Shown here one piece after another: positions 1 through 62,718 of a stretch of DNA of 64,000 nucleotides. The position numbers and the translations under genes were made by a program. The number at the start of each line of letters is the position of its first letter. Positions within the stretch are counted from its first letter, which is position 1. Source of the DNA: a bacterium (GTDB lineage Bacteria > Patescibacteriota > Dojkabacteria > SC72); assembly GCA_022840695.1 (NCBI GenBank), contig JALHDC010000001.1, positions 2,516 to 66,515 on the forward strand, read 5' to 3'. The notes under the pieces were generated by a model, which did not search any database, was not told the origin of the DNA, and saw only the letters and a list, made by a program, of their open reading frames with translations.

Positions 1-1924
1 GGTCTATGTTATGTTCTCTTAGGTTATCATTACATCCTTGGTCAAATGCTGTTAAGTACATTATTACGGATCCTCCTTCGTTTCCATTTATGGATACTCT
101 TGTATTATTCGTATTTATGTACGGGGTTGTATTGATATTTGATATCTTCCAGCTATTACTATCATTCATTAGGCCTATTTGGTCTTCTGGGGGGATGTTA
201 TCCAAGGTTATATCGCTGTAACCAACTAAGCTTATGGTGTCATTTATTAGGAAACCTTCTCTGTAGGCATTGATTACGGTATCAGTTATATTACTTGATG
301 TACCCTCTACATTCCAGTTAAGGTATAGTTCTTGGGGTCCCAGGACAACTTGGGACAGGTCAATCATGGTAGGGATTACAAGATCTATACCCCAGTTAAA
401 ATATCTTTGCATACGGCTTATATCCACTCTTCCGTCACTTAGTAGCATATATTGGTCAAGGGTTATACTTTTGAAGTTATACATTCCTTCTAGGTTATCT
501 GTGAGGTTGGGGATTAGTTCTAGGTTAAATTCGAAGGTTACTATTTGGCTTCCTTGGGTTATTTCTATATCAGAGACTCGGGCTATATTATTTCCGCTAC
601 TATTTTTTAATGTTTTATCTGATATTACTGCCCATGTATTATTACTGTTAATTCCATACACAAGTGGGGGATTATTCCAGGAGTTATTATCTTGGAGAAT
701 CATTATTCCCAGTTCATCTGTACTGCTTGAGGTGTAGTTACTTACTATGTTTGGAAGTTGTGGAGTATTATTTGATTTACTAAACCACACTACAGTTCCT
801 TTTATTTCGTTATTACCATCAATATCCTTGGATCCCACCCTTATTTTAAGGGGGTTGTTTACCTGGGTTCCTGTATATTCTTCTGTTTTGCATCCTTTAG
901 GGGAGGTTGAGTCTTCTTCCCCTACTTCTGGAAGGAATTCCTCCTTAGTACACTGTTGGTCAGGGAGCATTAAGCAGGGCTCTTCAGGATCTCCGGTATT
1001 TGGGTCTATACAGTTAGGGTCAGTAGCAAGGAGTGAGGGGTCCCAATCGCACACATCTATATCTACAATTGGTAAATTGTCTACCTTGTAGTAGGTTTCC
1101 AAAGGAAGGGAATATTCTTTGTTTGTATTACAGAGATTTTCTGTGTAATACATTCCACTTACTTGTCCTTTAGCATTTTCTTTGAGTACTTGGGGTATGG
1201 TTAAGGAGGTTGGAGTAAAGTTTTGGGTATTATTTATTGATTCAACACAGTAGTCTTCTCCTCTAGAGCAATCAAAGGGAAGCCATTCATTGTCTATTCC
1301 GTAGTTATTGGCTCTAAAGGCATATCCCAGTCCATTTGAGGTTGGAGGGGTTGGTCTTGTTGGTATGGATGTTTGTACATTGTTTGCGGGTGAGGGATAT
1401 TTTACTGTGGTTGGGGTTGAGGAATTTAATGACAAAGAATAATTCTCACCATCCACTATCATGTTTAATGAGGTCGGAATTGATTGAGCTACATTACTCT
1501 CTGTTTTATAGCATGTAGTTCTTTGTGTGCATGTATTATTACAACCGTTTAGATATGTACAGCTTACTTCCTGAGTATCTGTACTACACAAATTATTTGG
1601 GTTAGTTGTTGTATATCCTGCTGGACAGGATGGTGCAGTACAAGATCCACTACAAGAATTATTACATGGAGGGGGAGGGCAAGGACAAGAGTAATCATCA
1701 CAACCAGAAGTTGCTTTTTCACAGACATATTCTCTGTAAAGAAACCTTCCCATTTCATCACGAACGGTTCTCCAATAACAATAATCACAACTATACATAC
1801 CTCCACTGTGTCCACAAGAATACCACCGACAACAACATTGAGCAGACACAAATTGTCTGGAAGAAACAAACAACAATATTACAAAAAATAATATTGTTAA
1901 AAATATTTTAATTAACTTCTTCAT
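1..1924 (-). CDS. Large secreted Cys/Pro-rich surface protein; start at 1924, 3' end beyond the window start. At least 641 codons in window; absent from the ORF track because there is no in-window stop.
   Basis: Manual minus-strand translation gives an uninterrupted frame from ATG at 1924-1922 to position 1. N-terminus MKKLIKIFLTILFFVILLFVSSRQFVSAQ is signal-peptide-like. It is followed by a Cys-rich block (CCCRWYSCGH...CPCPPPPCNNSCSGSCTAPSCPAGY), then a Thr/Asn/Ser-rich region. The plus-strand track ORFs 270..737, 747..1091, 1336..1518 are antisense shadows. Confidence 0.6.
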   Translation of the reverse strand, partial: MKKLIKIFLTILFFVILLFVSSRQFVSAQCCCRWYSCGHSGGMYSCDYCYWRTVRDEMGRFLYREYVCEKATSGCDDYSCPCPPPPCNNSCSGSCTAPSCPAGYTTTNPNNLCSTDTQEVSCTYLNGCNNTCTQRTTCYKTESNVAQSIPTSLNMIVDGENYSLSLNSSTPTTVKYPSPANNVQTSIPTRPTPPTSNGLGYAFRANNYGIDNEWLPFDCSRGEDYCVESINNTQNFTPTSLTIPQVLKENAKGQVSGMYYTENLCNTNKEYSLPLETYYKVDNLPIVDIDVCDWDPSLLATDPNCIDPNTGDPEEPCLMLPDQQCTKEEFLPEVGEEDSTSPKGCKTEEYTGTQVNNPLKIRVGSKDIDGNNEIKGTVVWFSKSNNTPQLPNIVSNYTSSSTDELGIMILQDNNSWNNPPLVYGINSNNTWAVISDKTLKNSSGNNIARVSDIEITQGSQIVTFEFNLELIPNLTDNLEGMYNFKSITLDQYMLLSDGRVDISRMQRYFNWGIDLVIPTMIDLSQVVLGPQELYLNWNVEGTSSNITDTVINAYREGFLINDTISLVGYSDITLDNIPPEDQIGLMNDSNSWKISNINTTPYINTNNTRVSINGNEGGSVIMYLTAFDQGCNDNLREHNID

Positions 1925-3449
1925 AATTTTCTAATAATATCTTTAATAACCTCGCATTTGTCCTTATGTTATAATAGTTATCATTTTCCCATATACCTTT
2001 CTTATTATCATCATTATACAAATTAACATATACAGATTTGAAAACCCTTGAAAGAAAAAGGTCTCTTAGCTCCATATCCTCCTGATAGGCCTCAATACAT
2101 AAAAATGAAGCATAAGAACTTGTATCCAATAAAGATAATGTCTTATTTATATCCTCCAAGAACATCAATTTTATATTATTTAATATTTCTAAAAAGAAAG
2201 GGTCGTCACTGTATTGAGAGGCTACTTTTGAGGCATAAGCCAAACTACACACATCTCTCACCCCTATCTCTCCTCTATATATATATTCGTATATCAAAGA
2301 ATCTTTAGCCATTTCTAAAGCGAAGGTCTCAAAAGATCCAATTCCCATATCTTTTACAATAAGAATATCTGGAAGAAAATTTATACTATTCTCCAATGGT
2401 AACATCTCTTCTGTGACCTCATAATTGCTCTTCTCAACAATTCTACTCAAACTTAAACTTTGTAATAAATCCTCCTCCCTAACAAAGACCTCTTGTTTTT
2501 TATTTTGTAAATTTTCTATATCCTTTTTAATTCCGTTAATATTGCAAAATTCCTTAGATAGAAGATTAAAAAATCTTCTATCTCCAATATTATTATCTAT
2601 TTCCTTAATCATATTACAACCAAAAGAGCTATTTTGAATGTGCGATATTTCCTCATTAACAGTTATAAAATCTTTCGATTCACATTCTTTATCATCACAG
2701 GATCCTCCTTCGGAAGTAGCTTCCATTTCTCTTCTATCTTCCCTGTTTTTTAGGAAATTCGCAGTCATAGATTCAAAATTAGCTATAGAGGAGACATCAA
2801 AAAAATTCGAATTTTCTTTCCCAGCATTTTTAAATAAATATGAGTCGATCCAAAGTTGATAGAGGGTTAAGTTATAAAAACCATCTGTATTATGATAAAA
2901 AGTTTCTGTATCTCCACTTTCAGACTTAATATCATATACTTCCGTAGTCACAGATTCTAAATTATCTTTTTCAAGTTTATTAAAATTCTTAATACTATCA
3001 TACAAAATTCCTTGACTATCAAGATATATTTCTTCTCCTAGCTTTAGATCTTCCAATTTAAACGTTATGAGACTATCTTCACTCAAGTTGACTGTTAAGA
3101 GAATGTTTCTTGGGATAGACCCTAAGTCCTGAATGTCCTTATCCGCGGACCAATCAAGATTTAATGAAATATCTTTATAATACAAACTCTCTCCCTTCTC
3201 TGTATCCCAGGCATTTAAATCAAATATAAAATTACTACCCTCTTCCCTTATGTTATACATTATACCCCTTACCTTGTATTCCTTCTCCCCACACTTATTC
3301 TCTACTACAAACCTCTCTAGAAATTCATACCCCCTTGGCAATATTCCGCACCTATACATGAAGAAATACCAATATCCTAGTCCTAAAATACATAATACAA
3401 AAAGGATACTTAATATCGTTAACTTCTTATTTTGGGCAGACCTATTCAT
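1908..3449 (-). CDS. Membrane-anchored acidic protein, paralog B (513 aa), unknown function
   Basis: N-terminus MNRSAQNKKLTILSILFVLCILGLGYWYFF (signal anchor) is nearly identical to the upstream paralog; the C-terminal domain is diverged. No recognisable catalytic motif. Confidence 0.6.
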   Translation of the reverse strand: MNRSAQNKKLTILSILFVLCILGLGYWYFFMYRCGILPRGYEFLERFVVENKCGEKEYKVRGIMYNIREEGSNFIFDLNAWDTEKGESLYYKDISLNLDWSADKDIQDLGSIPRNILLTVNLSEDSLITFKLEDLKLGEEIYLDSQGILYDSIKNFNKLEKDNLESVTTEVYDIKSESGDTETFYHNTDGFYNLTLYQLWIDSYLFKNAGKENSNFFDVSSIANFESMTANFLKNREDRREMEATSEGGSCDDKECESKDFITVNEEISHIQNSSFGCNMIKEIDNNIGDRRFFNLLSKEFCNINGIKKDIENLQNKKQEVFVREEDLLQSLSLSRIVEKSNYEVTEEMLPLENSINFLPDILIVKDMGIGSFETFALEMAKDSLIYEYIYRGEIGVRDVCSLAYASKVASQYSDDPFFLEILNNIKLMFLEDINKTLSLLDTSSYASFLCIEAYQEDMELRDLFLSRVFKSVYVNLYNDDNKKGIWENDNYYNIRTNARLLKILLENYEEVN

Positions 3450-3451
3450 TT

Positions 3452-4669
3452 CTACTCTGTAATTATAGATAATATAACAATTGCAACAGAATCATTAAAT
3501 ACTGATCTCCACGTATCAAATTCTCTTTTTACAAAAGGGAAAAAATTATTTAAATTATATTCCTCATACGAGGAACACATATTAGACAAGAAACAAAATT
3601 TTGCATTATAATCATTGTATGTATAGTTGCTTATCCTTACCTCGGATCCTTCAAGATTAAGATTCCTCCTTATCCCATTTAACCAGAATACTGTTTCTTC
3701 ATTAATATTATGAAAATTATACAAATAATTAATACTAGCTCCATACAATCTCAAATACTTATCAGAACTCATAGAACTACAATATTTAATATCATCCGCA
3801 AACAATCTTAAACTATCATTATATTCAGGAGGTAAAGAACCCTCTAAATAAAGAGATCCTATTAAATTACTCATATCTCCATCATTAACAATATTGTTTG
3901 TTCCATCCGGAGATTCTAAAATAGAAGTATATTCCAAACCTAATTCCTTAGCCGCATAACAAGGAAGATATGAATTCTCTAGACTGAAATATTCCATATT
4001 CTCATCTATGAAATTTTGAATCTCTTCCCTTTGTCCTTCACTCAACCAATCTTCTTCTAAAAGTTTTTTAGCTGCTAGAAGCTCTAACACATCCCTCTTA
4101 TACTGAACATTTTCATCTGTACCTTCTAATTCAGAGGTTTCCTCCTCTCCCTCTAACAACATCTCAGAATTTTCAAGACCTTTTCCCCCAAAACCATTCC
4201 TAATGATTTCAAAAATTCTAAAGAGATATTCATTCCTTTTCTCATCCATTAAAATTTTATTGCCTGATATGTTTATAATATCTGAGACATCTCTACTAAA
4301 CTCAACATCATAGTTATATCCAATCTCAAAAATATCTCCAATATAGTTACAAATTGATATCTCTTTTTCTAGGTTGTCAGATATATTCATATTGTAGACA
4401 ATGGCATCTACCAGAACGCACTCATTACTATCTTTAGGTTGTACATCTTTAATATATATATTTACATTAAAAGATCTCTCTGTAATCTTTTTACTTTCCT
4501 TTGTCTTGTATTCATACAACTCATTGTAATCACCCCAATCATTACTAACAATGGATATTGATATACCATCCTTCTTTACAAAGAAATACCAATATCCTAG
4601 TCCTAAAATACATAATACAAAAAGGATACTTAAAACTATCAACACCTTATTTTGGGCAGACCTATTCAT
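3452..4669 (-). CDS. Membrane-anchored acidic protein, paralog A (405 aa), unknown function
   Basis: N-terminus MNRSAQNKVLIVLSILFVLCILGLGYWYFF. The 5' ~90 nt of this gene (4579..4670) is ~90% identical to 3361..3450 of paralog B. Confidence 0.6.
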   Translation of the reverse strand: MNRSAQNKVLIVLSILFVLCILGLGYWYFFVKKDGISISIVSNDWGDYNELYEYKTKESKKITERSFNVNIYIKDVQPKDSNECVLVDAIVYNMNISDNLEKEISICNYIGDIFEIGYNYDVEFSRDVSDIINISGNKILMDEKRNEYLFRIFEIIRNGFGGKGLENSEMLLEGEEETSELEGTDENVQYKRDVLELLAAKKLLEEDWLSEGQREEIQNFIDENMEYFSLENSYLPCYAAKELGLEYTSILESPDGTNNIVNDGDMSNLIGSLYLEGSLPPEYNDSLRLFADDIKYCSSMSSDKYLRLYGASINYLYNFHNINEETVFWLNGIRRNLNLEGSEVRISNYTYNDYNAKFCFLSNMCSSYEEYNLNNFFPFVKREFDTWRSVFNDSVAIVILSIITE

Positions 4670-12446: not shown

Positions 12447-12893
12447 TCAAATACCGGTTAGGAGGAAATCTTTCCAAATATGATATCCCCCCTCCTCATT
12501 GTTTTCTTGATTCGTACCCAATATCATTTCCATATCCTTTTCTGACTCGTCTAAGACTGCTTCAGGAATTACAAATATATACTCTCTCTCTCCAGCAAAG
12601 TTCAGTCTATCTCTTGCTTGGATCTCCAAATATTCCTTACTTTGCATGGTATCTAACAGAAGTGCCAATTCTAAATTCTTTAATCTTAATTCATCTACCT
12701 CAGAACGGGCATTTTTTAATATATCTAATTTTTGAACAGTAATGTCCGCTGAGTGAATAACATTGTAGAGGAGAAAGGCTGATACAGAGAGAAGAATGAT
12801 TTTAGTTAAAAGATTGTCGAACAATTTCTTAAATGATGGACCCTGATCTTCCTGTTTTACTCTTGTCCCTTCTTTGTAAATAAATCTATCCAT
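12447..12893 (-). CDS. FtsB/DivIC-like septum formation initiator (TM plus coiled coil)
   Basis: Single TM (IILLSVSAFLLYNVI) followed by a coiled-coil region (LKNLELALLLDTMQSKEYLEIQARDRLNFAGEREYIFVIP) typical of the FtsB family. Confidence 0.5.
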   Translation of the reverse strand: MDRFIYKEGTRVKQEDQGPSFKKLFDNLLTKIILLSVSAFLLYNVIHSADITVQKLDILKNARSEVDELRLKNLELALLLDTMQSKEYLEIQARDRLNFAGEREYIFVIPEAVLDESEKDMEMILGTNQENNEEGGYHIWKDFLLTGI

Positions 12894-13024
12894 GTATAGA
12901 TATTAACAGTATGCAGATTTTAATTCAAAAGTCCTATATATTTTTATTATTGCTCTCTACCCCTCGTGGTGATATAATTTTTTCTATATACAGTAAAACT
13001 ATATAAAATTAGGAATATAGAAAA

Positions 13025-13912
13025 GTGAGCGGAATAAATAACCCAAATTTTGAGAAAAAAGCCCATGCATTTATAGAAGATTTAAAGTCAAAAGGTCGCT
13101 CTGAATCAACAGTTATTGCATACTCCAAAGATATAGAACAGTTAGTAAACTTTTTCTCCAAAGAGGGACTCGCTTCTATGGATGATGTTGCGATTGAACA
13201 TTTAGAAAAATATAAACAAAATCTACAGGATAATAACTACACCCCAAAGAGTATTTCAAGAAAAATAAATAGTACAAGAACATTCTTTAGATTTCTTTTA
13301 GAAAATTCATTAATTAAAGATAATCCTTCAGAAAAGTTGGCTCATCCTAAGTTTGAAACAAAACCTCCAAGAATCTTAACAGAGATGGAGTACAGGGCAT
13401 TGAGAGATGTTAGTAGGGTCGATGTTAGGCTTTACTCTATTGTAGAAATTTTGTTACAAACAGGGATTAGGATTGGTGAATTAGCAGGGCTTTCTTTAGA
13501 CGATGTAAGGCAATCAAAAGATGGGAAAATTGATTTTCTATATATCAAGGCTGCAGGCAGTCATCCTGCAAGGAAGGTTCCTTTGAATAAATCAGCAAAA
13601 AAAGCTATAGATGATTATATAGAGGTAAGGCCAGAAACAGAGGACGAGACATTATTTGTAACTAAGAATGGTAGACCATTATTGGTTAGAAATATAAGAA
13701 CAGCTATAGATAAGGCATTTGAGAAGGCACAGATTAAGAATGCAAAGGTTAATGATTTAAGAAATACCTTCATCGCTCATCACCTATCAAATGGTGTAAG
13801 TTTGGTTACAGTTTCAAAACTTGTTGGACATAAAAGATTATCTACTACAGAGAAATATTTAAATCTTGTTAAGATTCAAGCTGAAGATCAGAAGAGCTTA
13901 GGAGAGCTGTAA
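13025..13912 (+). CDS. Tyrosine site-specific recombinase, XerC/XerD family
   Basis: 295 aa; C-terminal catalytic region with H-x-x-R and Tyr (VGHKRLSTTEKYLNL); N-terminal core-binding domain. Probably the housekeeping chromosome-dimer resolvase, but it ends 98 nt from the 3' end of tRNA-Ile. Confidence 0.8.
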   Translation: MSGINNPNFEKKAHAFIEDLKSKGRSESTVIAYSKDIEQLVNFFSKEGLASMDDVAIEHLEKYKQNLQDNNYTPKSISRKINSTRTFFRFLLENSLIKDNPSEKLAHPKFETKPPRILTEMEYRALRDVSRVDVRLYSIVEILLQTGIRIGELAGLSLDDVRQSKDGKIDFLYIKAAGSHPARKVPLNKSAKKAIDDYIEVRPETEDETLFVTKNGRPLLVRNIRTAIDKAFEKAQIKNAKVNDLRNTFIAHHLSNGVSLVTVSKLVGHKRLSTTEKYLNLVKIQAEDQKSLGEL

Positions 13913-14009
13913 TTGATAAATATCCGATAGAATATTAAATTTCTTTGTAAATTTCGCTATAGTCATTGGTATACTAACATTTCTCAACTCACTAAAGGTC
14001 TGGAGGGTG

Positions 14010-14083
14010 TGGGAATAGGTGGACTCGAACCACCGACCACGGCTTTATAAGAACCGCGCTCTAACCACCTGAGCTATATTCCC
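14010..14083 (-). tRNA. tRNA-Ile (anticodon TAT/UAU)
   Basis: Revcomp GGGAATATAGCTCAGGTGGTTAGAGCGCGGTTCTTATAAAGCCGTGGTCGGTGGTTCGAGTCCACCTATTCCCA. Anticodon stem CGGTT/AGCCG, loop CTTATAA. No encoded CCA. Confidence 0.65.
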
Positions 14084-14117: not shown

Positions 14118-16646
14118 TTAGAAGCCCATTGGAGGAAATCCTTGCGAAGGTTGTTCCACTTTCTCCTCTACCTTATCCAATTGAGATCTTACCCTTATAT
14201 CATCATTTACTACATTTAAATCTCTTCCATACTTTCTTCTTGATATTTCTTTCACTATATTTGCAACTTCTTTGTTTACAGGAAGATCAAATCCAGAATC
14301 TGGGTACTGTGGACCGTATAGAGTGTTAAGTGAGAAAGGAGAAGGATATATGCCATTGTTTAGAAGTTTAACATATGCATGTCCCATTCCTTGGTTAACG
14401 ATATCCATTGAACTGATATACGATTCAAATTGTGTCTCCAAAAATTCCGCATCTTCAGCACTGCATCTGAATATGAATAGCGATCCTACATTTCCAAATA
14501 CTGCATTTCTTATATCTTCTGGTAATTGCCCAATATATTGGTGAGCTAATGTAAGGTTTAATCTATACTTTCTTGCTTCTGAGAGTATAGAATTAAATTC
14601 TTCTGTAGCAAAGTTTTGGAATTCATCGGCATAGAAGAAGAAGTCTTTTCTTTCTTTTTCGTCCATATCTTCTCTACTTAGGGCAGCAGCTAACATTTTT
14701 TGGACCAAGAGTAGACCTAAGAACGACATATTTTCTTCCCCTAATCTACCTTTTGAAAGGTTAACTATTAAAATCTTGCCTGAGTCCATAACTTCTCTGA
14801 AATCGAAAGATGATTGTGATTGTCCAATTATATTTCTAATGGCTAAGTTTGTAGTGAATTTGTCAAACTTAGATATAAAATATGTAAGAGCTTCTGATTT
14901 TGTCTTTTTGTCTGTTTTAGCTACCTGATCTGTCCAATATCTACGAACCAGTTCATCCTGTATCAAGGGTAACCAATGACTCATAACCCAATCTTCATCC
15001 TGGAGTATTCTTACAACCTCTATTAAAGTAGAGTCCTTTTTAGACATAGCGGTAAGCATAGAGTTCCTTACAGCCTGTTGGAATGCTGGTCCTGCATATC
15101 CTTGGTTATGTGGATCAAAGAGACGGATGAGGAGAGCTATGAAGCTGTTCACTATTTGATGCTTATGCTGTTCATTGTAATACTCCATGATATTGATACC
15201 AAATGGTCTTTCAAAATCTCCAGCATCAAAATATATTACATCTTCTGCCCTATCCGCAGGAATTCTCTCTAATATCATTTCTGCAGCTTGTCCGTGTGGA
15301 TCTATGAAGCAGACACCATCTCCATTATGAATATCCTGAAGTATCATTCTAACCATGAGCCATGATTTACCTGTACCTGTTTGTCCAAGTATATATGAAT
15401 GTCTTCTTCTGTCATCCCTCTTAAAACAGATAGCTTTCTTTTTTCCCCTAAAGTAGTTATTCCCTACCCATATTGTATCTTTCGAATTTATATCCGAGCT
15501 TATCTCGTTACTTGCAATCAGTTCTTTTGAGAGTAACCAGTTAACATTGGGAGTAGAGATATCTTTATTTGGGAAGTGATACAGAGCTGCTAGCTCCTCA
15601 AGGTTTAAAACTGTTTTTTCATCTTCGGGTGTTCTTCTGTATATTACATCATATACAAATTTCTTTTCTTCATTTTTGGAAATTTTTCTTTTTTTCAACC
15701 TATTAACACCTGGATTACTGTATTGGTCAAAAGCCCCGATAATATTGTCTAAATGCATTTTTGCAATTCCTTTATCTGGAGCACTAGTGATTATACGAAT
15801 TTCAGCCATAAGACCCGGTTTGGAAACCTTTTTACTAATTGCCTGCAACTTCTCTTGAGAGACATTTATTCTCTTCTTTTCAGGATCTGAATTATTACTT
15901 TCAACTTTCTGCACAAACTTTTCACCATTTTTCTGCCAACTTGAATCTGTAGGAGCAATGACTATCTGTACCAAAGCTCCTTCGTCTTCAGACATTTTAC
16001 TCAAGGTACTAAGTACATTTGCCATTGGGTCTCCAGTGAAATTTTCAGCCACCCTTATTGGACAGTACGAATCTTCATCTAGACCTAATTTTGCATAAGC
16101 AATTTCAGATTTAGGTGCGAATATATTGTACTGTTTGACTATTGCTACATCAGCATCTTGGTATGATCCTAATATTTGTTTTTCAACCAAATCAGCAAGT
16201 TTTCTAGGACAATGAACAAAGAATCTGATTTCTCCAGGAAGTCCTACTATTTCAAAACTAACACTATTGTTTACACTGAATTTCTCTGCAAGACCTTCCC
16301 CTTTTCCTCCTATTCCATAGAGATTGGCAAACATTTTCTCAGCAACTCCCAACTCTACTTCATTATTTCTCGGGACTCTAACTTCCATTAATACCCCATC
16401 CATAGCTTTTTCATCTCTATCCTTCTTTTTTAATTTTTTCTGTATATACAGAAATCCAACGACTAAACCTCCTACCAAGAGAAGAAAAAATATTATCCAG
16501 CCGTATGGAATATTACGAGTTGCTTGATTGTATAAATCACCGTATGTATCTTTAGGATATTCAACATTAGAACCAGTCTCTATTTCTGGTATTTCTTTTG
16601 GTACAGGACCAATTAATTGTGAATATGTAAATTCCCCCGGATTCAT
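14118..16646 (-). CDS. Type IV secretion-type ATPase, VirB4/VirD4 (TraC/TrwB) superfamily, with N-terminal TM anchor
   Basis: 842 aa. TM IPYGWIIFFLLLVGGLVVGFLYI. Walker A ILGQTGTGKS followed by CFIDPHGQ (compare TrwB GATGTGKS...IVDPNGD). Walker B FFFYADEFQNF. Arginine finger/Q motif EARKYRLNLTLAHQ (compare VirB4 RKxN...ATQ). Walker A lies near residue 430 of 842, proportions like VirB4. Confidence 0.65.
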   Translation of the reverse strand: MNPGEFTYSQLIGPVPKEIPEIETGSNVEYPKDTYGDLYNQATRNIPYGWIIFFLLLVGGLVVGFLYIQKKLKKKDRDEKAMDGVLMEVRVPRNNEVELGVAEKMFANLYGIGGKGEGLAEKFSVNNSVSFEIVGLPGEIRFFVHCPRKLADLVEKQILGSYQDADVAIVKQYNIFAPKSEIAYAKLGLDEDSYCPIRVAENFTGDPMANVLSTLSKMSEDEGALVQIVIAPTDSSWQKNGEKFVQKVESNNSDPEKKRINVSQEKLQAISKKVSKPGLMAEIRIITSAPDKGIAKMHLDNIIGAFDQYSNPGVNRLKKRKISKNEEKKFVYDVIYRRTPEDEKTVLNLEELAALYHFPNKDISTPNVNWLLSKELIASNEISSDINSKDTIWVGNNYFRGKKKAICFKRDDRRRHSYILGQTGTGKSWLMVRMILQDIHNGDGVCFIDPHGQAAEMILERIPADRAEDVIYFDAGDFERPFGINIMEYYNEQHKHQIVNSFIALLIRLFDPHNQGYAGPAFQQAVRNSMLTAMSKKDSTLIEVVRILQDEDWVMSHWLPLIQDELVRRYWTDQVAKTDKKTKSEALTYFISKFDKFTTNLAIRNIIGQSQSSFDFREVMDSGKILIVNLSKGRLGEENMSFLGLLLVQKMLAAALSREDMDEKERKDFFFYADEFQNFATEEFNSILSEARKYRLNLTLAHQYIGQLPEDIRNAVFGNVGSLFIFRCSAEDAEFLETQFESYISSMDIVNQGMGHAYVKLLNNGIYPSPFSLNTLYGPQYPDSGFDLPVNKEVANIVKEISRRKYGRDLNVVNDDIRVRSQLDKVEEKVEQPSQGFPPMGF

Positions 16647-16708: not shown

Positions 16709-16999
16709 CTAGAGTGGCTCGTTACCATTCATATAGTCAACAAGTGCCTCCAAAGCAACATTGTATTTTGTTTCATCGGTGGCATCTATTACAGGAAATC
16801 CTACACCCAAATCTAGGTATTTAACTTTGTCAGTATTTGGTAAAGCTTTTTCTACAAGCTCTACTCTTTCCGGTGTGATTGGAGATGTGTCGTTTGAAGG
16901 AATTTCTACTACCGGGCTTTCGACAACAGGAGTAACTCCTACTGGCAATATCTCAGGAGTAATATTTGATTGTTCTATACTAGGTGTCATATTATTCAT
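16709..16999 (-). CDS. Hypothetical Pro/Val-rich small protein upstream of the T4SS-type ATPase
   Basis: 96-aa ORF co-oriented with and immediately upstream of the ATPase gene; low-complexity N-terminus; no recognisable motif. Confidence 0.3.
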   Translation of the reverse strand: MNNMTPSIEQSNITPEILPVGVTPVVESPVVEIPSNDTSPITPERVELVEKALPNTDKVKYLDLGVGFPVIDATDETKYNVALEALVDYMNGNEPL

Positions 17000-22729: not shown

Positions 22730-23122
22730 TTAGCTGATAATGTTTTTTACAAATTCTATTATATATGGAAGAAACACTATTAATCCTGTTGTTACAGAAA
22801 CAAAAGCACTCACTAAAACAGCTCCAGCACTAACATCTTTGGCATATTTAATATTTACCTTATACTCCAAAGAAACAGTATCACACAATGCCTCTATTGC
22901 ACTATTAACTGTTTCAGATATAAAGACCATGGATATTACTAAGCTTAATGCTATCCAATCTGTATGAGAAATTTGGAAAAAGAACCCAGCAAAGACAACC
23001 AAGAGTGCAAAGATGAGATCTATTCTAAAATTTCTTTCGTTCTTAAATATCAGCTTAATACCATTCCTAGCATGCCCTTGGCTTTTAAAAAAATTTTCTG
23101 CCTGATATTTATGATTTTTCAT
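22730..23122 (-). CDS. dgkA: Diacylglycerol/undecaprenol kinase (DgkA family)
   Basis: Three TM helices and the conserved SETVNSAIEALCD motif of prokaryotic DAGK. Confidence 0.8.
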   Translation of the reverse strand: MKNHKYQAENFFKSQGHARNGIKLIFKNERNFRIDLIFALLVVFAGFFFQISHTDWIALSLVISMVFISETVNSAIEALCDTVSLEYKVNIKYAKDVSAGAVLVSAFVSVTTGLIVFLPYIIEFVKNIIS

Positions 23123-23442
23123 TATTGGGCAATGAAGTCTAAAACTGCATTAAGTACTGTAAATATAACCATTACAAAGATAAAGCCAATAACAGCCCAT
23201 GTTAATGTCCCTTGAGCTTGCTTCACCCTAGCAGGATCCCCTGCAGATATCATCCACATATATCCTCCCTGTATTATGAATATTACACAGATCAAACCTG
23301 CCAATGGAAAAAGGTAACTTAAAAGTTTATCTACCAATGTAGCCAATGTCCCATCTGTTAACCTAGGTGGTTCCTGGGCAAACACCGGAGAAACTAGAAG
23401 AAGTCCGGAGAAAAAATATATATATTTAAATATACTTTTCAT
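23122..23442 (-). CDS. VirB2/TrbC-like small membrane pilin-type protein, paralog 1
   Basis: Signal peptide (…LLLVSPVFAQ), then two hydrophobic helices separated by the conserved loop GGYMWMISAGDPARVKQAQGTL. Confidence 0.55.
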   Translation of the reverse strand: MKSIFKYIYFFSGLLLVSPVFAQEPPRLTDGTLATLVDKLLSYLFPLAGLICVIFIIQGGYMWMISAGDPARVKQAQGTLTWAVIGFIFVMVIFTVLNAVLDFIAQ

Positions 23443-23717
23443 TATTTAGTAGTTAAAACTTCATTTATTACAAATTCTATAATTGTTGGGGATATAAATA
23501 CAAGTATTAAACCTAAAAGAGAGAATGCCATTGATCTTGTAGCATCTTTTATCTTATCCTCATCACCAAAAGAAAGTATGAACTTAAAGCCAGAAATGAC
23601 TAATGATATAACCACTATTACTACGGAGAATGAGATGGCAAAGTTTATTATAAAGAATACAAATTCTGTTAAATTCTCATACCCCGTGTTGTTAAGAATA
23701 CTTAAATCCACCAACAT
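23442..23717 (-). CDS. VirB2/TrbC-like small membrane protein, paralog 2
   Basis: Two hydrophobic helices with loop SFGDEDKIKDATRSM; start overlaps the stop of paralog 1 (translational coupling). Confidence 0.5.
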   Translation of the reverse strand: MLVDLSILNNTGYENLTEFVFFIINFAISFSVVIVVISLVISGFKFILSFGDEDKIKDATRSMAFSLLGLILVFISPTIIEFVINEVLTTK

Positions 23718-23741
23718 ACGGGTATTAATTAAAAATATCTA

Positions 23742-24086
23742 TTACTTAAGAACGTTTGTTAATACAAACTGTACTAAGATTACGGAGATAAAACAGATAA
23801 CCAAACCAACGATTGCATATGTCAATGATTTTGTTGCTTTTTCTATCTTTGATTCATCTCCAGCTGCTGTGATATATGTATATCCACTAGCTATCAATAT
23901 TGCAACACATACTAAAGCTGCTAAACCAATTACTAAGTTCAAAACATCTTTAACCCATGGTAAAAAATCTTTACTTAATGGACCTTCTGGTAAATACTCT
24001 GTACCTGTTTGTGCTAAGACTGCAGAAGCTAAGTAGAGATTAGAAGCAACTCCTGAAACTACTGCTAATATCTTGGTCATTTTCAT
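23742..24086 (-). CDS. VirB2/TrbC-like small membrane protein, paralog 3
   Basis: Signal peptide (…ASAVLAQ) plus two helices and loop ASGYTYITAAGDESKIEKATKSL. Confidence 0.55.
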   Translation of the reverse strand: MKMTKILAVVSGVASNLYLASAVLAQTGTEYLPEGPLSKDFLPWVKDVLNLVIGLAALVCVAILIASGYTYITAAGDESKIEKATKSLTYAIVGLVICFISVILVQFVLTNVLK

Positions 24087-24161: not shown

Positions 24162-24458
24162 TTATAACCCCAATATCTTTCCAATAACAAAATCTATTAT
24201 TGTTCTAGCTAAAAATACAATAACCAAACCTATGATTGCAGCTGTTATACCCTTTTGACCTTTTTCGATCTTTTCAGGATCTCCTGCAGCAGTTATGAAC
24301 ATATACCCTGAAGCTACTAAGATAATTACAGCAACTAAAGCTGAAAATCCTACAAAGAAATCAATTGCAGTACCCACTTTTGAATTCAAAACGGAATCAA
24401 GAGTAGGATCTCCCCAATTTATTAATTTATCTCCAATAAACTGAGTTATATTTGTCAT
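24162..24458 (-). CDS. VirB2/TrbC-like small membrane protein, paralog 4
   Basis: Loop ASGYMFITAAGDPEKIEKGQKGI between two hydrophobic helices. Confidence 0.55.
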   Translation of the reverse strand: MTNITQFIGDKLINWGDPTLDSVLNSKVGTAIDFFVGFSALVAVIILVASGYMFITAAGDPEKIEKGQKGITAAIIGLVIVFLARTIIDFVIGKILGL

Positions 24459-24474: not shown

Positions 24475-24825
24475 TTAATTATAAATATCCAAACCCAATG
24501 TATTACTGATTATCAATAGTATTGCAACAGAAAGTAATACTACTAAAAAACCAATAATTGCATTAGTTAAAATTTCCTTCCCTTCTTTTAATTTGTCCGG
24601 ATTTCCTTGACTAGACATAAGCATATATCCAGCATATACCACTAAAACAACCACACATATCACAGCCAAAGGAACAGCGATATCTACGATGGCATCTATA
24701 AGTTGATTCTCATCGGCAATCCCACCACTCTCCAATTTACCTAAACTTTCACTTAGTTTTGAACCCAAATCCTGAGCATATGCTTTTTGCACTATTAAAT
24801 CATGAATTTTACTAATAATTTCCAT
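24475..24825 (-). CDS. VirB2/TrbC-like small membrane protein, paralog 5
   Basis: Loop AGYMLMSSQGNPDKLKEGKEIL between two hydrophobic helices; most divergent copy. Confidence 0.5.
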   Translation of the reverse strand: MEIISKIHDLIVQKAYAQDLGSKLSESLGKLESGGIADENQLIDAIVDIAVPLAVICVVVLVVYAGYMLMSSQGNPDKLKEGKEILTNAIIGFLVVLLSVAILLIISNTLGLDIYN

Positions 24826-30109: not shown

Positions 30110-31009
30110 TTAATTCAAAGTAATACTACTCATCACTTCATCTAAAAGTGGTAAAACCTCCTCATCAGGATTTCCTATGATCTTTACACCATAACTACTC
30201 CCTGTTTCTGTTCCCATACCACTATCATACTCAAACGAAAGAGTATCGAATGATAAGACACCTGCAGACAATCCACATAATGGATGGAATTCATCAACAT
30301 TCGCATTATCCAAATCATTCCAATATAGGCTAGATTCAACTCTTCTCCCTCTAAAATCTATGAAAGAAAATTCTGTATAATCTCCATCCGCAATTACGGT
30401 AACTGTAGGCATAGCCTCATCAGGATCACTACTAAGATTATAATCTGTAGTTAAGCCATTAATCACATCTATATATGACTGAGGAGTATCCGAGAATCTT
30501 CCAACAGAAGAACAAATATCAATACCTCCTATACCCATTACAGCATATACTTGAAGAACTTCCTCATCCTCATCTGTCAGAATAGAAAGACCTGTTAAAC
30601 CTTGATACTCAGCATCCATTAACATATCTGTTCCGTCTCCATCCACATACTCTACAATACTCCACCCTTCAGGAAGTTGAGCAGTTATGTAATCTCCCAC
30701 GAAATCAGAAGAAAGAGCAACAGCATCTTCCTCTTTTTCATCTTGATCCTCCTCTTCCCCATCAGGATCTGGAGTATCAGAACTGGAACCTTCTTCACCT
30801 GCAGGTTCATAATTAGCAAAATAGTAGCCTGCATATGCAGCTGCACCCAAAAGCAACATTACTCCCAATACTATTAAAACTGTTTTTAGTCCTTTTCCCT
30901 TTGGTTTACTCGCAGTAGCAACAGTAGGTGTAGCTACACCCTCTTTAGGAGCCTCTGTCTTCACAGCATTCTCCATCGAAGGTGCTCCTTGATTTAAATC
31001 TGATTCCAT
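30110..31009 (-). CDS. Membrane-anchored acidic protein, family with conserved EGWSIxEYxDGDGTDMLMD motif (paralog 1)
   Basis: TM LKTVLIVLGVMLLLGAAAYAGYYF, then a D/E-rich linker and the block LPEGWSIVEYVDGDGTDMLMDAEYQGLTGL, shared with 32628..33458. Confidence 0.55.
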   Translation of the reverse strand: MESDLNQGAPSMENAVKTEAPKEGVATPTVATASKPKGKGLKTVLIVLGVMLLLGAAAYAGYYFANYEPAGEEGSSSDTPDPDGEEEDQDEKEEDAVALSSDFVGDYITAQLPEGWSIVEYVDGDGTDMLMDAEYQGLTGLSILTDEDEEVLQVYAVMGIGGIDICSSVGRFSDTPQSYIDVINGLTTDYNLSSDPDEAMPTVTVIADGDYTEFSFIDFRGRRVESSLYWNDLDNANVDEFHPLCGLSAGVLSFDTLSFEYDSGMGTETGSSYGVKIIGNPDEEVLPLLDEVMSSITLN

Positions 31010-32627: not shown

Positions 32628-33458
32628 ATGGAAGTAGAACAGAATATTGATACAACTATTCAAAAGGACGATGGTGTTAATACAAAAAATCCTTCTGATG
32701 GGAATAAGGATATCTGGGTTATTCTTTTAAATGTGTTTCTTGCCTTGGTAACAATCCTCCTCCTTGGATATGTAGCATATAGGAATGGATATATTGATTT
32801 AGATAATGTATTTAAACCTAAAGAACAAACAGAGGAAGAATCAAATGAGGAGAATGATGCTTCCAATGATTTAGTTATACAGGAGAATGGGGAAACAACA
32901 TTAAATACATACGAGGGAGAAGTTCTCTCTGCAATACTTCCTAGTGGTTGGAGCATAACGGAGTATATGGATGGAGATGGAACAGATATGTTAATGGATA
33001 CTGTTGAATATACTGGTTTGACAGGCCTCACTGTATCATACAATAATGTACCAATACTTGAATTAATAGCTGTTTCAGGTATCGGTTTCATTGGATGTCC
33101 TGAATTACCTATATTTACAGATAGTAGTGAAGCCTACCTACAGGAACAGGTAGAGATGAATGAAGAAATCCAGGAAAATATGGTTACTTATGATTATACC
33201 AATACCCCATATTCTGATTTTCAATGGTTTGGAAAAGATTTTAGGAGGGTTGGAACAACACTATACTTTGATACAGTAGCAGGTAATGAATATTTTGAAC
33301 CACAGTGTGAGGGAGGCTTAGTGACTGTACCAGGACTTAGATTTGAGGATTCGGATGGATATGAGGGAGTAGCATATTTCTATAATATAAACGAAGAAGC
33401 ATCTGCAGAACAATTGGAAACATTAGATAATATATTGGCTAGTATGATGGAGATATAG
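32628..33458 (+). CDS. Membrane-anchored acidic protein, EGWSIxEYxDGDGTDMLMD family (paralog 2)
   Basis: TM IWVILLNVFLALVTILLLGYVAY; LPSGWSITEYMDGDGTDMLMDTVEYTGLTGL, homologous to 30110..31009. Confidence 0.55.
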   Translation: MEVEQNIDTTIQKDDGVNTKNPSDGNKDIWVILLNVFLALVTILLLGYVAYRNGYIDLDNVFKPKEQTEEESNEENDASNDLVIQENGETTLNTYEGEVLSAILPSGWSITEYMDGDGTDMLMDTVEYTGLTGLTVSYNNVPILELIAVSGIGFIGCPELPIFTDSSEAYLQEQVEMNEEIQENMVTYDYTNTPYSDFQWFGKDFRRVGTTLYFDTVAGNEYFEPQCEGGLVTVPGLRFEDSDGYEGVAYFYNINEEASAEQLETLDNILASMMEI

Positions 33459-33919: not shown

Positions 33920-34216
33920 TTATTTATATACTTTTCTACTTCCAGAATGCCCCCCTATGGTTAATAAAAGAATAATATTCCCATCCTCAAACCTCCAAAG
34001 TATTCTAATATCTCCACTAACCCTAGAAGTGTACGTCCGGGCACCATAGGAACTATACACGATATGCGTTCTTAATCCTGGATTTGAAGGATCCTTTCTT
34101 AATTTTTTCAATACAGAAACTATCCTAAAAGCTAACTCCCTATTTTTCTTAGTTAACCTTTTAAACTCCTTTTTATATTTTGCTGTTAAATGTATTACAA
34201 AATTATTCTTCTCCAT
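33920..34216 (-). CDS. RelE/ParE-family type II toxin
   Basis: 98 aa; YGARTYTSRVSGDIRILWRFEDGNIILLLTIGGHS is a typical RelE/ParE C-terminal region; overlaps the upstream small ORF by 14 nt. Confidence 0.65.
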   Translation of the reverse strand: MEKNNFVIHLTAKYKKEFKRLTKKNRELAFRIVSVLKKLRKDPSNPGLRTHIVYSSYGARTYTSRVSGDIRILWRFEDGNIILLLTIGGHSGSRKVYK

Positions 34217-34508
34217 TTATCAAGGATGAGAAATAATCATCTATTTCTTTTGAGTTTCTTAAAGCAATCGTTTTCCCCTCCTTGTACTCCTTTATTCCAT
34301 CTTCTATATCCTTTGCCAATTGGGGATCATCTATATACTCCTCAGAACCAAGATGAAAACCTTCAACATCCTTGGTAAGAACATATCTCACATACTCAGG
34401 AAAGGAATATCCATATATTCTCGCCTTAGATTCAGCAATATCCATCAATCGACTTGGAAATGTTATCTGTCTTGTAACACTTTTTTTATAGTCTATACTC
34501 TTAGTCAT
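34203..34508 (-). CDS. Putative cognate antitoxin (101 aa)
   Basis: Immediately upstream of and overlapping the toxin; acidic C-terminus; N-terminal region could form an RHH/DNA-binding fold (inference). Confidence 0.45.
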   Translation of the reverse strand: MTKSIDYKKSVTRQITFPSRLMDIAESKARIYGYSFPEYVRYVLTKDVEGFHLGSEEYIDDPQLAKDIEDGIKEYKEGKTIALRNSKEIDDYFSSLINGEE

Positions 34509-48923: not shown

Positions 48924-50678
48924 ATGAGATTTATTAAATCATTTATATTTTCACTCTTTCTCATAATACTTCTCCCCTCCACCATTCTTGCCAGAGAGAT
49001 TATTAGAGAGGAAGACGGAGAAAGATGCATAGATTTGGAAGCTGCTTATGCAGATATTAATGATTCGAGTAAGGCATTGACAGGGCAGGATAATAGTGTT
49101 GATGCGGTTAAGAGAGTAAATACCGTAGCTTCTCTGACTAATATTATGTCAATCTTAATAGGAGATAGTATTTACTGTGTGAACGATGAAGCTTCTGTAT
49201 CGAATATCGGGGGATCAGATGACAATGGGCTTATTGGACAGTTATTAAATGCAAATTCACAAATGATTGCTTCGTTCCCGACAGTCAATGTCGGGCAACA
49301 CCTTGCCGAGGAGTTTATCCCTGGTTATCGCGACAATGTAGGAATTTTTGCATTGGGGATAGGAGATTATGAAGAAGATGATCTTGATAAAGAGGAAAGG
49401 AAGGGACAAAAAAGAATAAAGCAAATACAAGAGAAGGTGACAGATCCCTTACAAGAGCAATTTTTAGAAGATGCTAACCAAATTATTGAAGAGAGTGAAA
49501 ATTTGGAAAGTGTAGATACTTCAAACCCTGTTACAAATTCTGGTTATAACTATTTAAAGGATAATTTACATCTTGATGAGATTTGGGGTACTTTTAGAAA
49601 TATTGCCTACCTGGGATATGTAATTATTATTATTATTGTTGGTTTCATGATCATGTTCCGGAAGAATCTTCCTGGGCAAATCGTTGTATCGTTGGGAAAT
49701 ACAATCCCCCAGATTATATTCGGGCTCATTTTAGTAACATTTAGTTTCGCCATTGTTGGAATAGTTATGGATGTAGGTAAAACATCAATGAAAGTGATAG
49801 GTTCTATGTTTGTATCTGTGTATAAAGAGGAAGATCCTACTGTAACGGAGGAAGATTTGGTAGGAGTTGAAGATATTGGTTCCTTAACCGATGAAGCCTT
49901 AATAACTGCTAAACAGGACGGTTTTATAGTCTCTAATCTAAGAAAGCTGCCATTGATAGGCGAGAATTTAGCTGATTCATATTCTGGAACTGCCGGAACA
50001 GTTAAGAAAATTGTTGGACAATCAGTTGGTATATTTACATTAACTGCATTAGCAGATGTGATGACTAAGAATATTCAAAATATGCATTTTGATGTAAATA
50101 TTTTGGGGGTTGATTTGGTTTTGGATATCGCTGCGGAGACAATAAAGAGCATTATAACCCTTCCTCTGAATGCGATAAAAGTTGGTTTAACAACCTTTCT
50201 TATTAGAAACATATTACTTCTCCTAGTTTGTCTATATGCTTCTTTTAAATTGTTCATTACGATGTTAATGACATATCTTAAATTATTCATCAATGTCATA
50301 TTTGGCCCTATTCAGATAATGTTAGGTTCTCTTCCTGGAAATTTCTCTTCAACAACAAAATGGTTTAAATCCGTTATTGCAAATGTATTCACATTTGTAG
50401 GAATATACTTAGTTATAAATGTATTTGCATTCATATCTTCTGCAGTTGATCCTGCTCAATTCAATTTTTTTGGAAATAAAGGAGTATTTTGGCCAGATTG
50501 GATAGTCTCTTTAGAGGGAGTTATTTTAATAGCAGGCTATCTATTTGCAGCTAATATGCCAACAATAATTAATGGTGCACTAAAGATAGAGCAAAGTAAG
50601 GAGATGTCTATGGTTGGCCAATCAGTACAGAAGGCTGCAGGAAAAATACCTTTTATAGGTGGAATGTTTAATGGTTAG
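48924..50678 (+). CDS. Large polytopic membrane protein with signal peptide and ~200-aa extracytoplasmic domain (possible VirB6/TrbL-like)
   Basis: 584 aa. Cleavable-looking signal (FIFSLFLIILLPSTILA), then an acidic ectodomain, then at least 6 TM helices (IAYLGYVIIIIIVGFMIMF; IIFGLILVTFSFAIVGIVM; LLLLVCLYASFKLFITMLMTYL; VFTFVGIYLVINVFAFI; VILIAGYLFAANMP). Architecture, not sequence identity, suggests VirB6/TrbL. Confidence 0.55.
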   Translation: MRFIKSFIFSLFLIILLPSTILAREIIREEDGERCIDLEAAYADINDSSKALTGQDNSVDAVKRVNTVASLTNIMSILIGDSIYCVNDEASVSNIGGSDDNGLIGQLLNANSQMIASFPTVNVGQHLAEEFIPGYRDNVGIFALGIGDYEEDDLDKEERKGQKRIKQIQEKVTDPLQEQFLEDANQIIEESENLESVDTSNPVTNSGYNYLKDNLHLDEIWGTFRNIAYLGYVIIIIIVGFMIMFRKNLPGQIVVSLGNTIPQIIFGLILVTFSFAIVGIVMDVGKTSMKVIGSMFVSVYKEEDPTVTEEDLVGVEDIGSLTDEALITAKQDGFIVSNLRKLPLIGENLADSYSGTAGTVKKIVGQSVGIFTLTALADVMTKNIQNMHFDVNILGVDLVLDIAAETIKSIITLPLNAIKVGLTTFLIRNILLLLVCLYASFKLFITMLMTYLKLFINVIFGPIQIMLGSLPGNFSSTTKWFKSVIANVFTFVGIYLVINVFAFISSAVDPAQFNFFGNKGVFWPDWIVSLEGVILIAGYLFAANMPTIINGALKIEQSKEMSMVGQSVQKAAGKIPFIGGMFNG

Positions 50679-61546: not shown

Positions 61547-62104
61547 ATGTTTAAAACGGATAAACAACCAAAATCCATTAATTTCTTAGATGCACTATAT
61601 TCTCCTAATGATCTTTGGGCAAATGCATATGTTTGGCTTGTTAATATAGGAAAATATCTTCTGATATTTGTTCAAGTTGTGGTTTTGATTGTTTTTTTCT
61701 CTAGGTTTGTACTAGATAGAAAAAATAATGACCTTACAGAGGAGATTAATAATAAGGTTGTATTGTTATCCAATGAAAATTGGAAGAAGAATTCTGCTCT
61801 TTTTGAAAACTACCAATCTCTTTTACTAGACAGTAAAAAAGTTAGAGAAGGTCAGCAAATTAACTCCACAGTAGTTAGTGAGTTAATAAATGGTGTCCCC
61901 TCTTCGCTTAAGTTAGAAAATTTTACCTTTAATGAGGGAAAGGTTTCTTTTCATTTAACAACATCAAATTTAGATGCTGTTAATAATTATGAATCTGCTT
62001 TGAAAAATAACCCTAACTATTACGATGTTAGATTTTCTATTAGTAAAGATAGGACAGAGGTTAGTGTAAGAGTTACCTTTAATCTTTATCCTGCAACAAA
62101 ATAA
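61547..62104 (+). CDS. PilN-like bitopic membrane protein (tentative)
   Basis: Short cytoplasmic N-terminus, one TM (YLLIFVQVVVLIVFF), periplasmic-type C-terminal domain; architecture only. Confidence 0.35.
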   Translation: MFKTDKQPKSINFLDALYSPNDLWANAYVWLVNIGKYLLIFVQVVVLIVFFSRFVLDRKNNDLTEEINNKVVLLSNENWKKNSALFENYQSLLLDSKKVREGQQINSTVVSELINGVPSSLKLENFTFNEGKVSFHLTTSNLDAVNNYESALKNNPNYYDVRFSISKDRTEVSVRVTFNLYPATK

Positions 62105-62718
62105 TGAAGGAAAAGAATATTAATACAACAGAATATATCAAAATTATTAAAGAATCTCCTGAAAAGAAGAAGTCATATATATTTTTTGGATTTTCGGTAT
62201 TTGTAATGATAATTTTAATCGCATTTGCAATTAGACCAACGATTTTGACTATAACGAGGATAAATAAAGAAATAAAAGAGAAGAGTACAGTTAATTCTCT
62301 CTTAAAAAAGAAGATAGAAACTTTGAGTGAATTAGATAAACAGTATGCTACAGAAAGAAAGAATTTTGATAATTTAGAATTAATATTTCCAGCAGATGGG
62401 AATTTCAGTCTATTTATGTCAAATATAGATGCAGTAGCTGCTAGAAATGGTTTTGCTTTAATGGCTGTTAATTTTGATAATTACAAAGGAGATAGTTTTA
62501 ATGTTGCTACAAAGGTCTTGGTCCCAAAGGCAGTGAGATTAAGTATCAAGGGGAAGGATTCTAATCTGATCAACCTACTCCGAGATTTAGAGGCATTACC
62601 AATGTATCCCGTGGTTGAGTCAGTATCATTCTCTACCCAAAGGGATAAGGATAATTTGAATTCATTTAGTTTGAATTTAAGAATATACAATATAGAGAAT
62701 AATAATTTTTACAAATAG
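62104..62718 (+). CDS. PilO-like bitopic membrane protein (tentative)
   Basis: TM FFGFSVFVMIILIAFAI followed by a coiled coil and an alpha/beta domain; start overlaps the previous stop. Confidence 0.35.
   Translation: MKEKNINTTEYIKIIKESPEKKKSYIFFGFSVFVMIILIAFAIRPTILTITRINKEIKEKSTVNSLLKKKIETLSELDKQYATERKNFDNLELIFPADGNFSLFMSNIDAVAARNGFALMAVNFDNYKGDSFNVATKVLVPKAVRLSIKGKDSNLINLLRDLEALPMYPVVESVSFSTQRDKDNLNSFSLNLRIYNIENNNFYK

Follow-up and report, generated by a model that had tools for sequence, protein, structure and literature searches.

A membrane-anchored DUF8128 ATPase of the VirB4/VirD4 branch in Dojkabacteria, with a predicted VirB4-like N-terminal domain

The analysed window, a 64,000-nucleotide (64-kb) stretch of a contig (JALHDC010000001.1) that its homologues assign to Candidatus Dojkabacteria (WS6), one of the Patescibacteria/CPR lineages, carries on its minus strand a gene for a membrane-anchored ATPase (14118..16646; ATG start, 842 aa). 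The open reading frame (ORF) listing and domain matches show a DUF8128 domain followed by a motor of the type found in type IV coupling proteins (T4CPs). A sequence-only reading of the window had described this ORF, a single N-terminal transmembrane (TM) helix, a set of nucleotide-binding motifs and an NTPase core in the C-terminal half; all were recovered, the ORF at exactly the stated position, for which that reading had named no strand. The N-terminal half, which that reading treated as unexplained, corresponds in the predicted model to a domain resembling the VirB4 N-terminal domain (NTD). The modelled architecture is a TM helix, a VirB4-NTD-like domain and a VirD4-like motor. With considerable confidence, we place the protein among the P-loop ATPases of the FtsK-HerA superfamily, on its VirB4/VirD4 branch.

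The TM helix (aa ~48–68; 16443..16505, minus strand; hydropathy 2.64) has its hydrophobic stretch at aa 50–68. It is preceded by an acidic tail (net charge −4) and followed by a lysine-rich segment (+3), an asymmetry that implies a single-pass anchor with the N-terminal tail outside and the following segment inside (N-out/C-in). In the predicted model the helix extends over residues 48–82, with a high predicted local distance difference test score (pLDDT) from aa ~50. One N-terminal TM helix is likewise present in 36 of 38 diverse family representatives.

The remaining features are encoded on the same minus strand. The predicted cytoplasmic N-terminal domain (aa ~83–372; 15531..16400), matching Pfam DUF8128, ends in an inter-domain linker motif, EELAALYHFP...TPNVNWL (aa 350–371; 15534..15599), in which E351, H357 and P359 are invariant; across the homologues the consensus EELAxxxHxP...TPNIxWL joins this domain to the motor. 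The C-terminal motor (aa ~385–822; 14181..15494) is a RecA-like nucleotide-binding domain of the VirB4/VirD4/HerA type. Its Walker A motif GQTGTGKS (aa 421–428; 15363..15386; G421, G424, G426 and K427 invariant) is followed by FIDPHG (aa 447–452; 15291..15308; D449, P450 and G452 invariant), and the whole stretch aligns without a single gap to TrwB (GATGTGKS...IVDPNG), so the TrwB-like spacing noticed from the letters alone stands. An all-alpha insertion (aa ~490–610; 14817..15179), recognised from predicted helices and the TrwB_AAD_bind match, separates Walker A from Walker B, just where TrwB has its own all-alpha domain; the model places its helices at residues 492–509, 520–533, 541–549, 551–561, 565–577, 580–599 and 601–607. 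Walker B reads FFFYADEF (aa 669–676; 14619..14642; D674 and E675 invariant). The protein thereby combines the RecA-like domain, both Walker motifs and the intervening all-alpha domain of T4CPs.

The last motif, EARKYRLNLTLAHQ (aa 690–703; 14538..14579), aligned to TrwB GRKAGLRVVAGLQ, contains a candidate arginine finger (R692/K693) and a candidate sensor (Q703). It had been read as VirB4-like; the motif is there and its three key residues are invariant, whereas the 'RK...Q' pattern is common to the whole FtsK-HerA superfamily and is no specific pointer to VirB4. Taken as a set, the motifs are far beyond chance. Among 72 homologues, down to 37% identity, K427, D674, E675, R692, K693 and Q703 are all invariant, and against three orthologues the proportion of synonymous differences (pS) is 0.72–0.79 (saturated) while that of nonsynonymous differences (pN) is 0.10–0.19. 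The gene is thus functional and subject to purifying selection.

By sequence, the motor is nearest to the coupling proteins. Pfam matches above their gathering thresholds (GA) are T4SS-DNA_transf (PF02534; 37.0 bits vs 20.1) and TrwB_AAD_bind (PF10412; 24.6 vs 20.5), together with DUF87/HerA (30.6 vs 23.2), which overlaps the T4CP match at a lower score; TraG-D_C (19.5 bits) stays under GA, as does AAA_10 (PF12846; 14.5 bits vs 27.5). FtsK_SpoIIIE, the gamma domain and CagE_TrbE_VirB (PF03135) gave no Pfam match in the ATPase. The best NCBIfam matches are the VirD4-like CD1115 (46.7 bits vs a cut-off of 250), TraD (44.5 vs 366) and TrbC (30.1 vs 647), with VirB4_plasma at 16.4 bits against 590. 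Placement in the VirB4/VirD4 superfamily, proposed in the sequence-only reading, is borne out by these VirD4/TraD/TrwB-type matches, and a best match to FtsK or HerA, which would have spoken against it, did not turn up. A profile of the family, searched against all PDB sequences, retrieved TrwB (4e-7), DotL (9e-7) and HerA (5e-4), with no VirB4 (TrwK included) and no FtsK at E≤1; the family hidden Markov model (HMM) also missed two bona fide plasmid VirB4s at E≤10. When the motor was searched by tblastn against 72,556 plasmids, 514 records matched, and the annotated genes among them were all of the T4CP type.

Both halves of the predicted model resemble VirB4 or T4CP structures. For the motor, the fold comparison scored highest against the C-terminal domain of a Gram-positive VirB4 (4AG5; 29.3, 2.8 A), followed by the DptH C-domain (27.4), TrwB (26.4), HerA (24.8), DotL (23.3), Cagbeta (22.4), FtsK (17.0) and TcpA (16.8). 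The modelled fold therefore puts the motor in the VirB4/VirD4/HerA group, with no finer placement from fold alone.

The DUF8128 half, as modelled, has the fold of the VirB4 NTD, so that the protein, like VirB4, would carry this fold ahead of its ATPase domain. The structural match to TrwK, whose aligned ranges were not printed, we infer to fall on the TrwK N-terminal domain, because no other RecA-like ATPase occurs among the matches of this half. A public protein 100% identical to the product (P0001) has the precomputed domains PF26449 (DUF8128), PF10412, PF01935 and PF02534, and PF26449 stands N-terminal to the ATPase in it and in all 240 homologues among the matches listed; the local Pfam profile scan did not return PF26449 for the window ATPase. 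In the plasmid R388, the VirB4 N-terminal domain fastens VirB4 to VirB3 and VirB8 within the inner-membrane complex. The VirB4-like nature of the DUF8128 domain had not been described: no mention of DUF8128 was found in the literature searched, and a VirB4-like N-terminal domain is mentioned neither in Quinonero-Coronel et al. 2025, nor in Wang et al. 2023, nor in a 2025 review.

The gene sits in a housekeeping neighbourhood with the order SmpB, a ~100-aa ORF, the ATPase, tRNA-Ile (14009-14083, directly downstream), a convergent Xer-type tyrosine recombinase, DivIC, EF-P, FtsH, PolA and a ligase. The same order is kept in other Dojkabacteria with an ATPase 85% identical, and the GC content near the gene is unremarkable. 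Given this conserved order, the ATPase gene is chromosomal, vertically inherited and outside any island, despite the adjoining tRNA and recombinase, in agreement with the earlier claim that no mobile element surrounds it. A genomic island built on the tRNA and an integrase was considered and rejected, the recombinase being Xer-like and the block conserved synteny. The recombinase itself (13025..13912, plus strand) scores 165 bits against XerC, 160 against XerD and 151 against XerA, all under the equivalog cut-offs.

Neighbourhood statistics were drawn from 84 family loci, 60 of which had enough flank for counting Xer. In 24 of these 60, a Xer recombinase gene follows no more than 3 kb downstream, in every case on the opposite strand, with DivIC next in 17–19. 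The pair (window 12447-13912) is kept in Dojkabacteria and Microgenomatia, two groups whose upstream genes are not alike, and it is absent from the Paceibacteria, ABY1, Doudnabacteria and WWE3 loci. Because the linkage is missing in these more distant classes, inherited synteny explains the proximity as well as a functional association does.

Upstream of the ATPase, 62 nt away, lies an acidic ORF rich in Pro, Thr and Glu (16709..16999, minus strand; 96 aa), a possible small partner. An ORF of 96–112 aa occupies the place between smpB and the ATPase in all Dojkabacteria loci (L001 9645-9938, L007 9588-9923, L008 4071-4379, L009 2480-2818), and BLAST detects no similarity between its versions in genomes whose ATPases are 71–85% identical; it may encode a disordered protein of hypervariable sequence, or else be no gene at all. 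In the wider family, 58 of 78 loci have a small gene (≤230 aa) on the ATPase strand, no more than 300 nt upstream. Among these genes, at least four sequence types without mutual similarity can be told apart (e.g. L004 7568-7981, L005 7500-7973, L066, L010), with the C-terminal motifs LPxTxxQ..RWLAEWC, VxVAxxLNDPYILDxxHD, IPGVNKFFxxQEAKIKTDKI and GNPxDxxTWxxxLLDRxLKK, and their products may be lineage-specific partners or adaptors. Pfam-less proteins of ~750–800 aa upstream of the ATPase in four divergent loci were also considered as a conserved partner and discarded, there being no detectable similarity among them.

An exhaustive homology search for the ATPase family returned 20,891 clusters at 50% identity with a limit of E≤1e-3; a limit of E≤1e-30 leaves 4,918. 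Most members are 780–870 aa long and align end to end. Named members come from Dojkabacteria, Woese-, Levy-, Davies-, Curtiss-, Roizman- and Shapirobacteria, WWE3, Doudna-, Uhr-, Moran-, Magasanik-, Portnoy- and Staskawiczbacteria. Across Patescibacteria the gene belongs to the core, is nearly universal and keeps its synteny; its products form a large, vertically inherited family of TM helix, DUF8128 and T4CP-type motor. Many records of metagenome-assembled genomes with a Patescibacteria-type ATPase are titled Gammaproteobacteria, Pseudomonadales, Bathyarchaeia, Limisphaerales or Saccharibacteria (L014, L020, L022, L023, L036, L052 and others); L009, whose ATPase is 77% identical to the Dojkabacteria protein, is an example of such doubtful titles, and the record taxonomy appears unreliable.

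Outside the phylum, relatives occur on plasmids and in phages. The Bacillus subtilis plasmid NRS6116_2 encodes a 913-aa homologue (WP_144625398.1, annotated as 'DUF87 domain-containing protein') with both domains collinear (BLASTP 7e-36 over aa 129–761; 266 bits with the family HMM). Its gene is directly upstream of a replication-relaxation family gene, followed by genes for TcpD, TcpE and a separate VirB4 (AAA_10, 285 bits); it thus belongs to a Tcp-type conjugation operon, a classical conjugative context that the window lacks. A Haladaptatus megaplasmid (L090 4693-11733) has consecutive genes for a VirB4-like protein (1072 aa), a separate DUF8128-like protein (350 aa) and a T4CP-like protein (895 aa), a trio that is a split version of the DUF8128 and motor architecture. 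Since the family stands next to a separate VirB4 on plasmids and its HMM misses plasmid VirB4s, it is a paralogue co-existing with VirB4 that, in a conjugative setting, fills the coupling-protein slot. The T4CP of pLS20 is of a different, two-TM type. The best plasmid match, from Sulfitobacter, is a motor-only gene amid transposases and was set aside as uninformative. Full-length homologues (phrog_5156) are encoded by the lytic Bacillus phages SPO1 (gp27.4; L088 4776-7496) and G (gp156), whose same two domains align over aa ~85–762 at ~21–22% identity. A scan of IMG/VR found relatives on only five contigs, all motor-only, and gave no evidence for a viral gene of the Patescibacteria type.

Set against known systems, the ATPase is a hybrid. 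Coupling proteins of the VirD4/TraG/TraD/TrwB type (TrwB of R388, PDB 1E9R; DotL; Cagbeta) typically have two TM helices and a short periplasmic loop; the window protein has one helix, carries an additional predicted cytoplasmic domain of ~300 aa resembling the VirB4 NTD, and has no relaxase or T4SS (type IV secretion system) core genes nearby. It differs from VirB4 (TrwK of R388, PDB 7O42/8RTD; the C-terminal domain of Thermoanaerobacter pseudethanolicus VirB4, 4AG5) in lacking a VirB4 profile signal, in having its own TM anchor and in being encoded away from a T4SS core (virB3/trsD/virB6), its neighbours being SmpB, the small ORF, tRNA-Ile, Xer and DivIC; moreover, the family co-exists with real VirB4 in plasmid operons.

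Genes of this class in minimal genomes are already published, catalogued and annotated. In Patescibacteria, 5,713 T4CP homologues were reported in 2,918 of 3,035 genomes, only 148 of them near virB4, with T4CP matches divided into t4cp1 and t4cp2 and Dojkabacteria genomes tabulated as VirB4-positive; relaxases are few, and exaptation of the T4CP homologues was suggested, the Southlakia homologue being non-essential (Quinonero-Coronel et al. 2025, PMC12102498). The window ATPase resembles these homologues in phylum, in its VirD4-type profile matches, in an occurrence of about one t4cp1 per genome, usually far from virB4, and in the lack of relaxases; the DUF8128/VirB4-like domain is not described there, and t4cp1 is a putative counterpart of the window family. 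In Southlakia the T4SS and its pilin array are essential, and that cluster has no recognisable coupling protein (Wang et al. 2023). The T4SS-like systems of Patescibacteria have been treated as a new T4SS type (2025 review).

Three VirB2-like T4SS pilin paralogues, all on the minus strand and all matching PF18895, are encoded at 23122..23442 (50.3 bits), 24162..24458 (43 bits) and 24475..24825 (37.7 bits), which upholds the VirB2-like array that the sequence-only reading had placed at 23 kb. They lie 6.5–8 kb from the ATPase gene. Their copy number varies: seven are present at the corresponding site of a relative with an ATPase 85% identical (L001 487-3674), and the last of those seven encodes a 332-aa protein with a pilin domain. 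In the gap between pilin genes of the window, a 152-aa ORF in the opposite orientation (23578-24036) looks spurious. A VirB6-like candidate had also been proposed at 49 kb. Its product (48924-50678; 584 aa) has a signal sequence and at least five TM segments and is thus polytopic, but no Pfam, NCBIfam, PHROG or PDB-sequence match was found for it or for its 646-aa and 758-aa neighbours, so that it stays an unsupported candidate. Apart from the three pilins, neither a relaxase nor a T4SS core gene turned up in the window; linkage to the relaxase family is seen in the Bacillus plasmid homologue.

The best explanation overall, in which our belief somewhat exceeds our doubt, is an ATPase of the VirB4/VirD4 branch that docks on the T4SS-like platform of Patescibacteria as a second ATPase; whether the window protein is linked to a T4SS at all we regard as an even call. 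We hypothesize that the ATPase would assemble into a ring on the cytoplasmic side of the membrane, where its TM helix and VirB4-like domain could dock on a T4SS-like inner-membrane platform, by analogy with the R388 VirB4 NTD and its partners VirB3 and VirB8. That platform would comprise the VirB2-like pilins 6.5–8 kb away and a VirB4 core encoded elsewhere in the genome, and ATP would drive the handover of a macromolecule (DNA, RNA or protein) into, through or out of the pilus-bearing channel. The role is probably a co-opted, non-conjugative one in exchange between epibiont and host, since there is no relaxase nearby and the neighbourhood is a housekeeping one. The ATPase would then be the second of the system and not its sole motor. 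The sequence-only reading had made it 'the motor' of a type IV secretion or conjugation-like machine, which is not supported in view of the separate VirB4 listed in Dojkabacteria, the VirB4s missed by the family HMM, the co-occurrence with VirB4 in plasmid operons and the reportedly non-essential Southlakia homologue; the roles it offered, DNA uptake or effector delivery, drew no support and stay inferential.

Several observations weigh against this explanation. A Walker A scan of the window ORFs of at least 150 aa yields only FtsH, the 842-aa ATPase, a UvrD-like helicase, DnaA and a Clp-protease-like protein (a chance match), hence no VirB4 in the 64-kb window, which also holds no VirB3, VirB8 or supported VirB6. 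The similarity of the DUF8128 half to the VirB4 NTD is structural only: sequence identity is 6%, and hhalign of DUF8128 against one VirB4 N-terminal half gave a probability of 1.6%, so sequence homology is undetected. The motor falls far under every NCBIfam equivalog cut-off, those for T4CPs included, and its PADLOC mad8 match (60.8 bits) exceeds the Pfam T4CP matches. The phages encoding SPO1 gp27.4 and phage G gp156 have no T4SS whatsoever, so members of the family can function in the absence of such a channel. Finally, the T4CP homologue of Southlakia is non-essential while its T4SS genes are essential (PMC12102498), a comparison made at the level of the T4CP class and not of the DUF8128 type.

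If the VirD4-like motifs are a mere trace of shared ancestry and each domain folds as in VirB4, the protein could instead be a second VirB4-type ATPase energising the machine or pilus assembly, and not one that couples substrates. This appears unlikely: CagE_TrbE_VirB is not matched and AAA_10 stays at roughly half its threshold, the family profile passes over TrwK and the other VirB4s, true VirB4s stand alongside the family in the Bacillus and haloarchaeal operons, where the Bacillus member adjoins a relaxase-family gene, and Dojkabacteria are already listed as VirB4-positive (PMC12102498). The recurrent Xer and DivIC genes, kept across Dojkabacteria and Microgenomatia while the upstream genes differ, would fit an autonomous membrane-anchored DNA translocase acting with Xer and the divisome to resolve chromosome dimers or aid segregation in the manner of FtsK, and the homologues in T4SS-less phages make action without a channel conceivable. 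We nevertheless demoted this reading and give it little credence, as the FtsK/SpoIIIE hallmarks (motor profile, gamma or KOPS-binding domain, multi-TM N-terminus) are lacking, FtsK lies far off in structure, the Xer gene runs convergently and is linked within one clade only, and FtsK-like genes exist in the phylum.

The mad8, DptH and HerA similarities and the phage homologues could also be taken to indicate an ATPase of defence or DNA processing, or a phage-derived function, unrelated to secretion. We find this similarly improbable: no nuclease, methylase, NurA or Sir2 partner is adjacent to the gene or present in the conserved neighbourhoods, the gene is core and near-universal in Patescibacteria unlike patchy defence islands, the TM helix and modelled VirB4-like NTD are not the HAS-barrel architecture of HerA, and the few IMG/VR relatives cover the motor only. 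A coupling protein of an integrated conjugative element is scarcely credible. The integrase-family gene and tRNA-Ile adjoining the ATPase would suit such an element, as would the homologues in plasmid conjugation operons. However, the recombinase is Xer-like, other Dojkabacteria share the block SmpB/small ORF/ATPase/Xer/DivIC/EF-P/FtsH/PolA, the window has neither a relaxase nor any further transfer gene, and the GC content is not anomalous.

Returning to the second ATPase docked on a T4SS-like platform, a broader evolutionary proposal can be attached to it, which we consider possible and rather doubtful: DUF8128 ATPases may represent a third, ancient branch of T4SS ATPases, a 'missing link' between VirB4 and coupling proteins that retains the VirB4 domain for docking to the membrane complex, joined to a VirD4-like motor, and that is found on chromosomes of Patescibacteria, on plasmids of Firmicutes and haloarchaea and in SPO1-like phages. 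Its Patescibacteria members would have been recruited as a core translocase with no part in conjugation, e.g. of host-derived nucleic acid or of effectors at the epibiont–host interface, possibly with the fast-evolving small partner encoded just upstream. Patescibacteria depend on hosts, and the single species tested cannot do without its T4SS-like apparatus. A near-universal 'orphan T4CP' with a putative VirB4-type docking domain offers a testable idea of how such a protein plugs into the machine, as well as a handle on the evolution of coupling proteins from VirB4, and the phage and plasmid relatives provide tractable Bacillus systems for functional tests. With a new hybrid architecture in a class of genes already known, we regard the finding as incremental and not as a new system.

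The window also holds housekeeping genes for an ATP-dependent ligase, PolA, FtsH, EF-P, SmpB, tmRNA, dnaA/dnaN, RNase J and two tRNA synthetases; an Rfam scan returned tRNAs and tmRNA only. Tandem Pfam-less proteins of 513 and 405 aa (1908-3449 and 3452-4669, minus strand) share a near-identical N-terminal signal anchor (MNRSAQNK.L..LSILFVLCILGLGYWYFF) and then diverge; they probably represent surface proteins that arose by duplication. On either side of the tmRNA region, two Pfam-less membrane-anchored proteins (30110-31009, minus strand; 32628-33458, plus strand) have the block LPxGWSIxEYxDGDGTDMLMD..EYxGLTGL in common and appear to be paralogous secreted proteins. By the tmRNA gene, overlapping genes for 98-aa and 101-aa products (33920-34508, minus strand) may make up a toxin-antitoxin pair of type II within this minimal genome, the 98-aa product having a weak YafQ-toxin match (21.4 bits, under GA). 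At the window end (61547-62718, plus strand), weak PilN-like and PilO-like matches, both under GA, suggest type IV pilus assembly genes besides the T4SS pilins.

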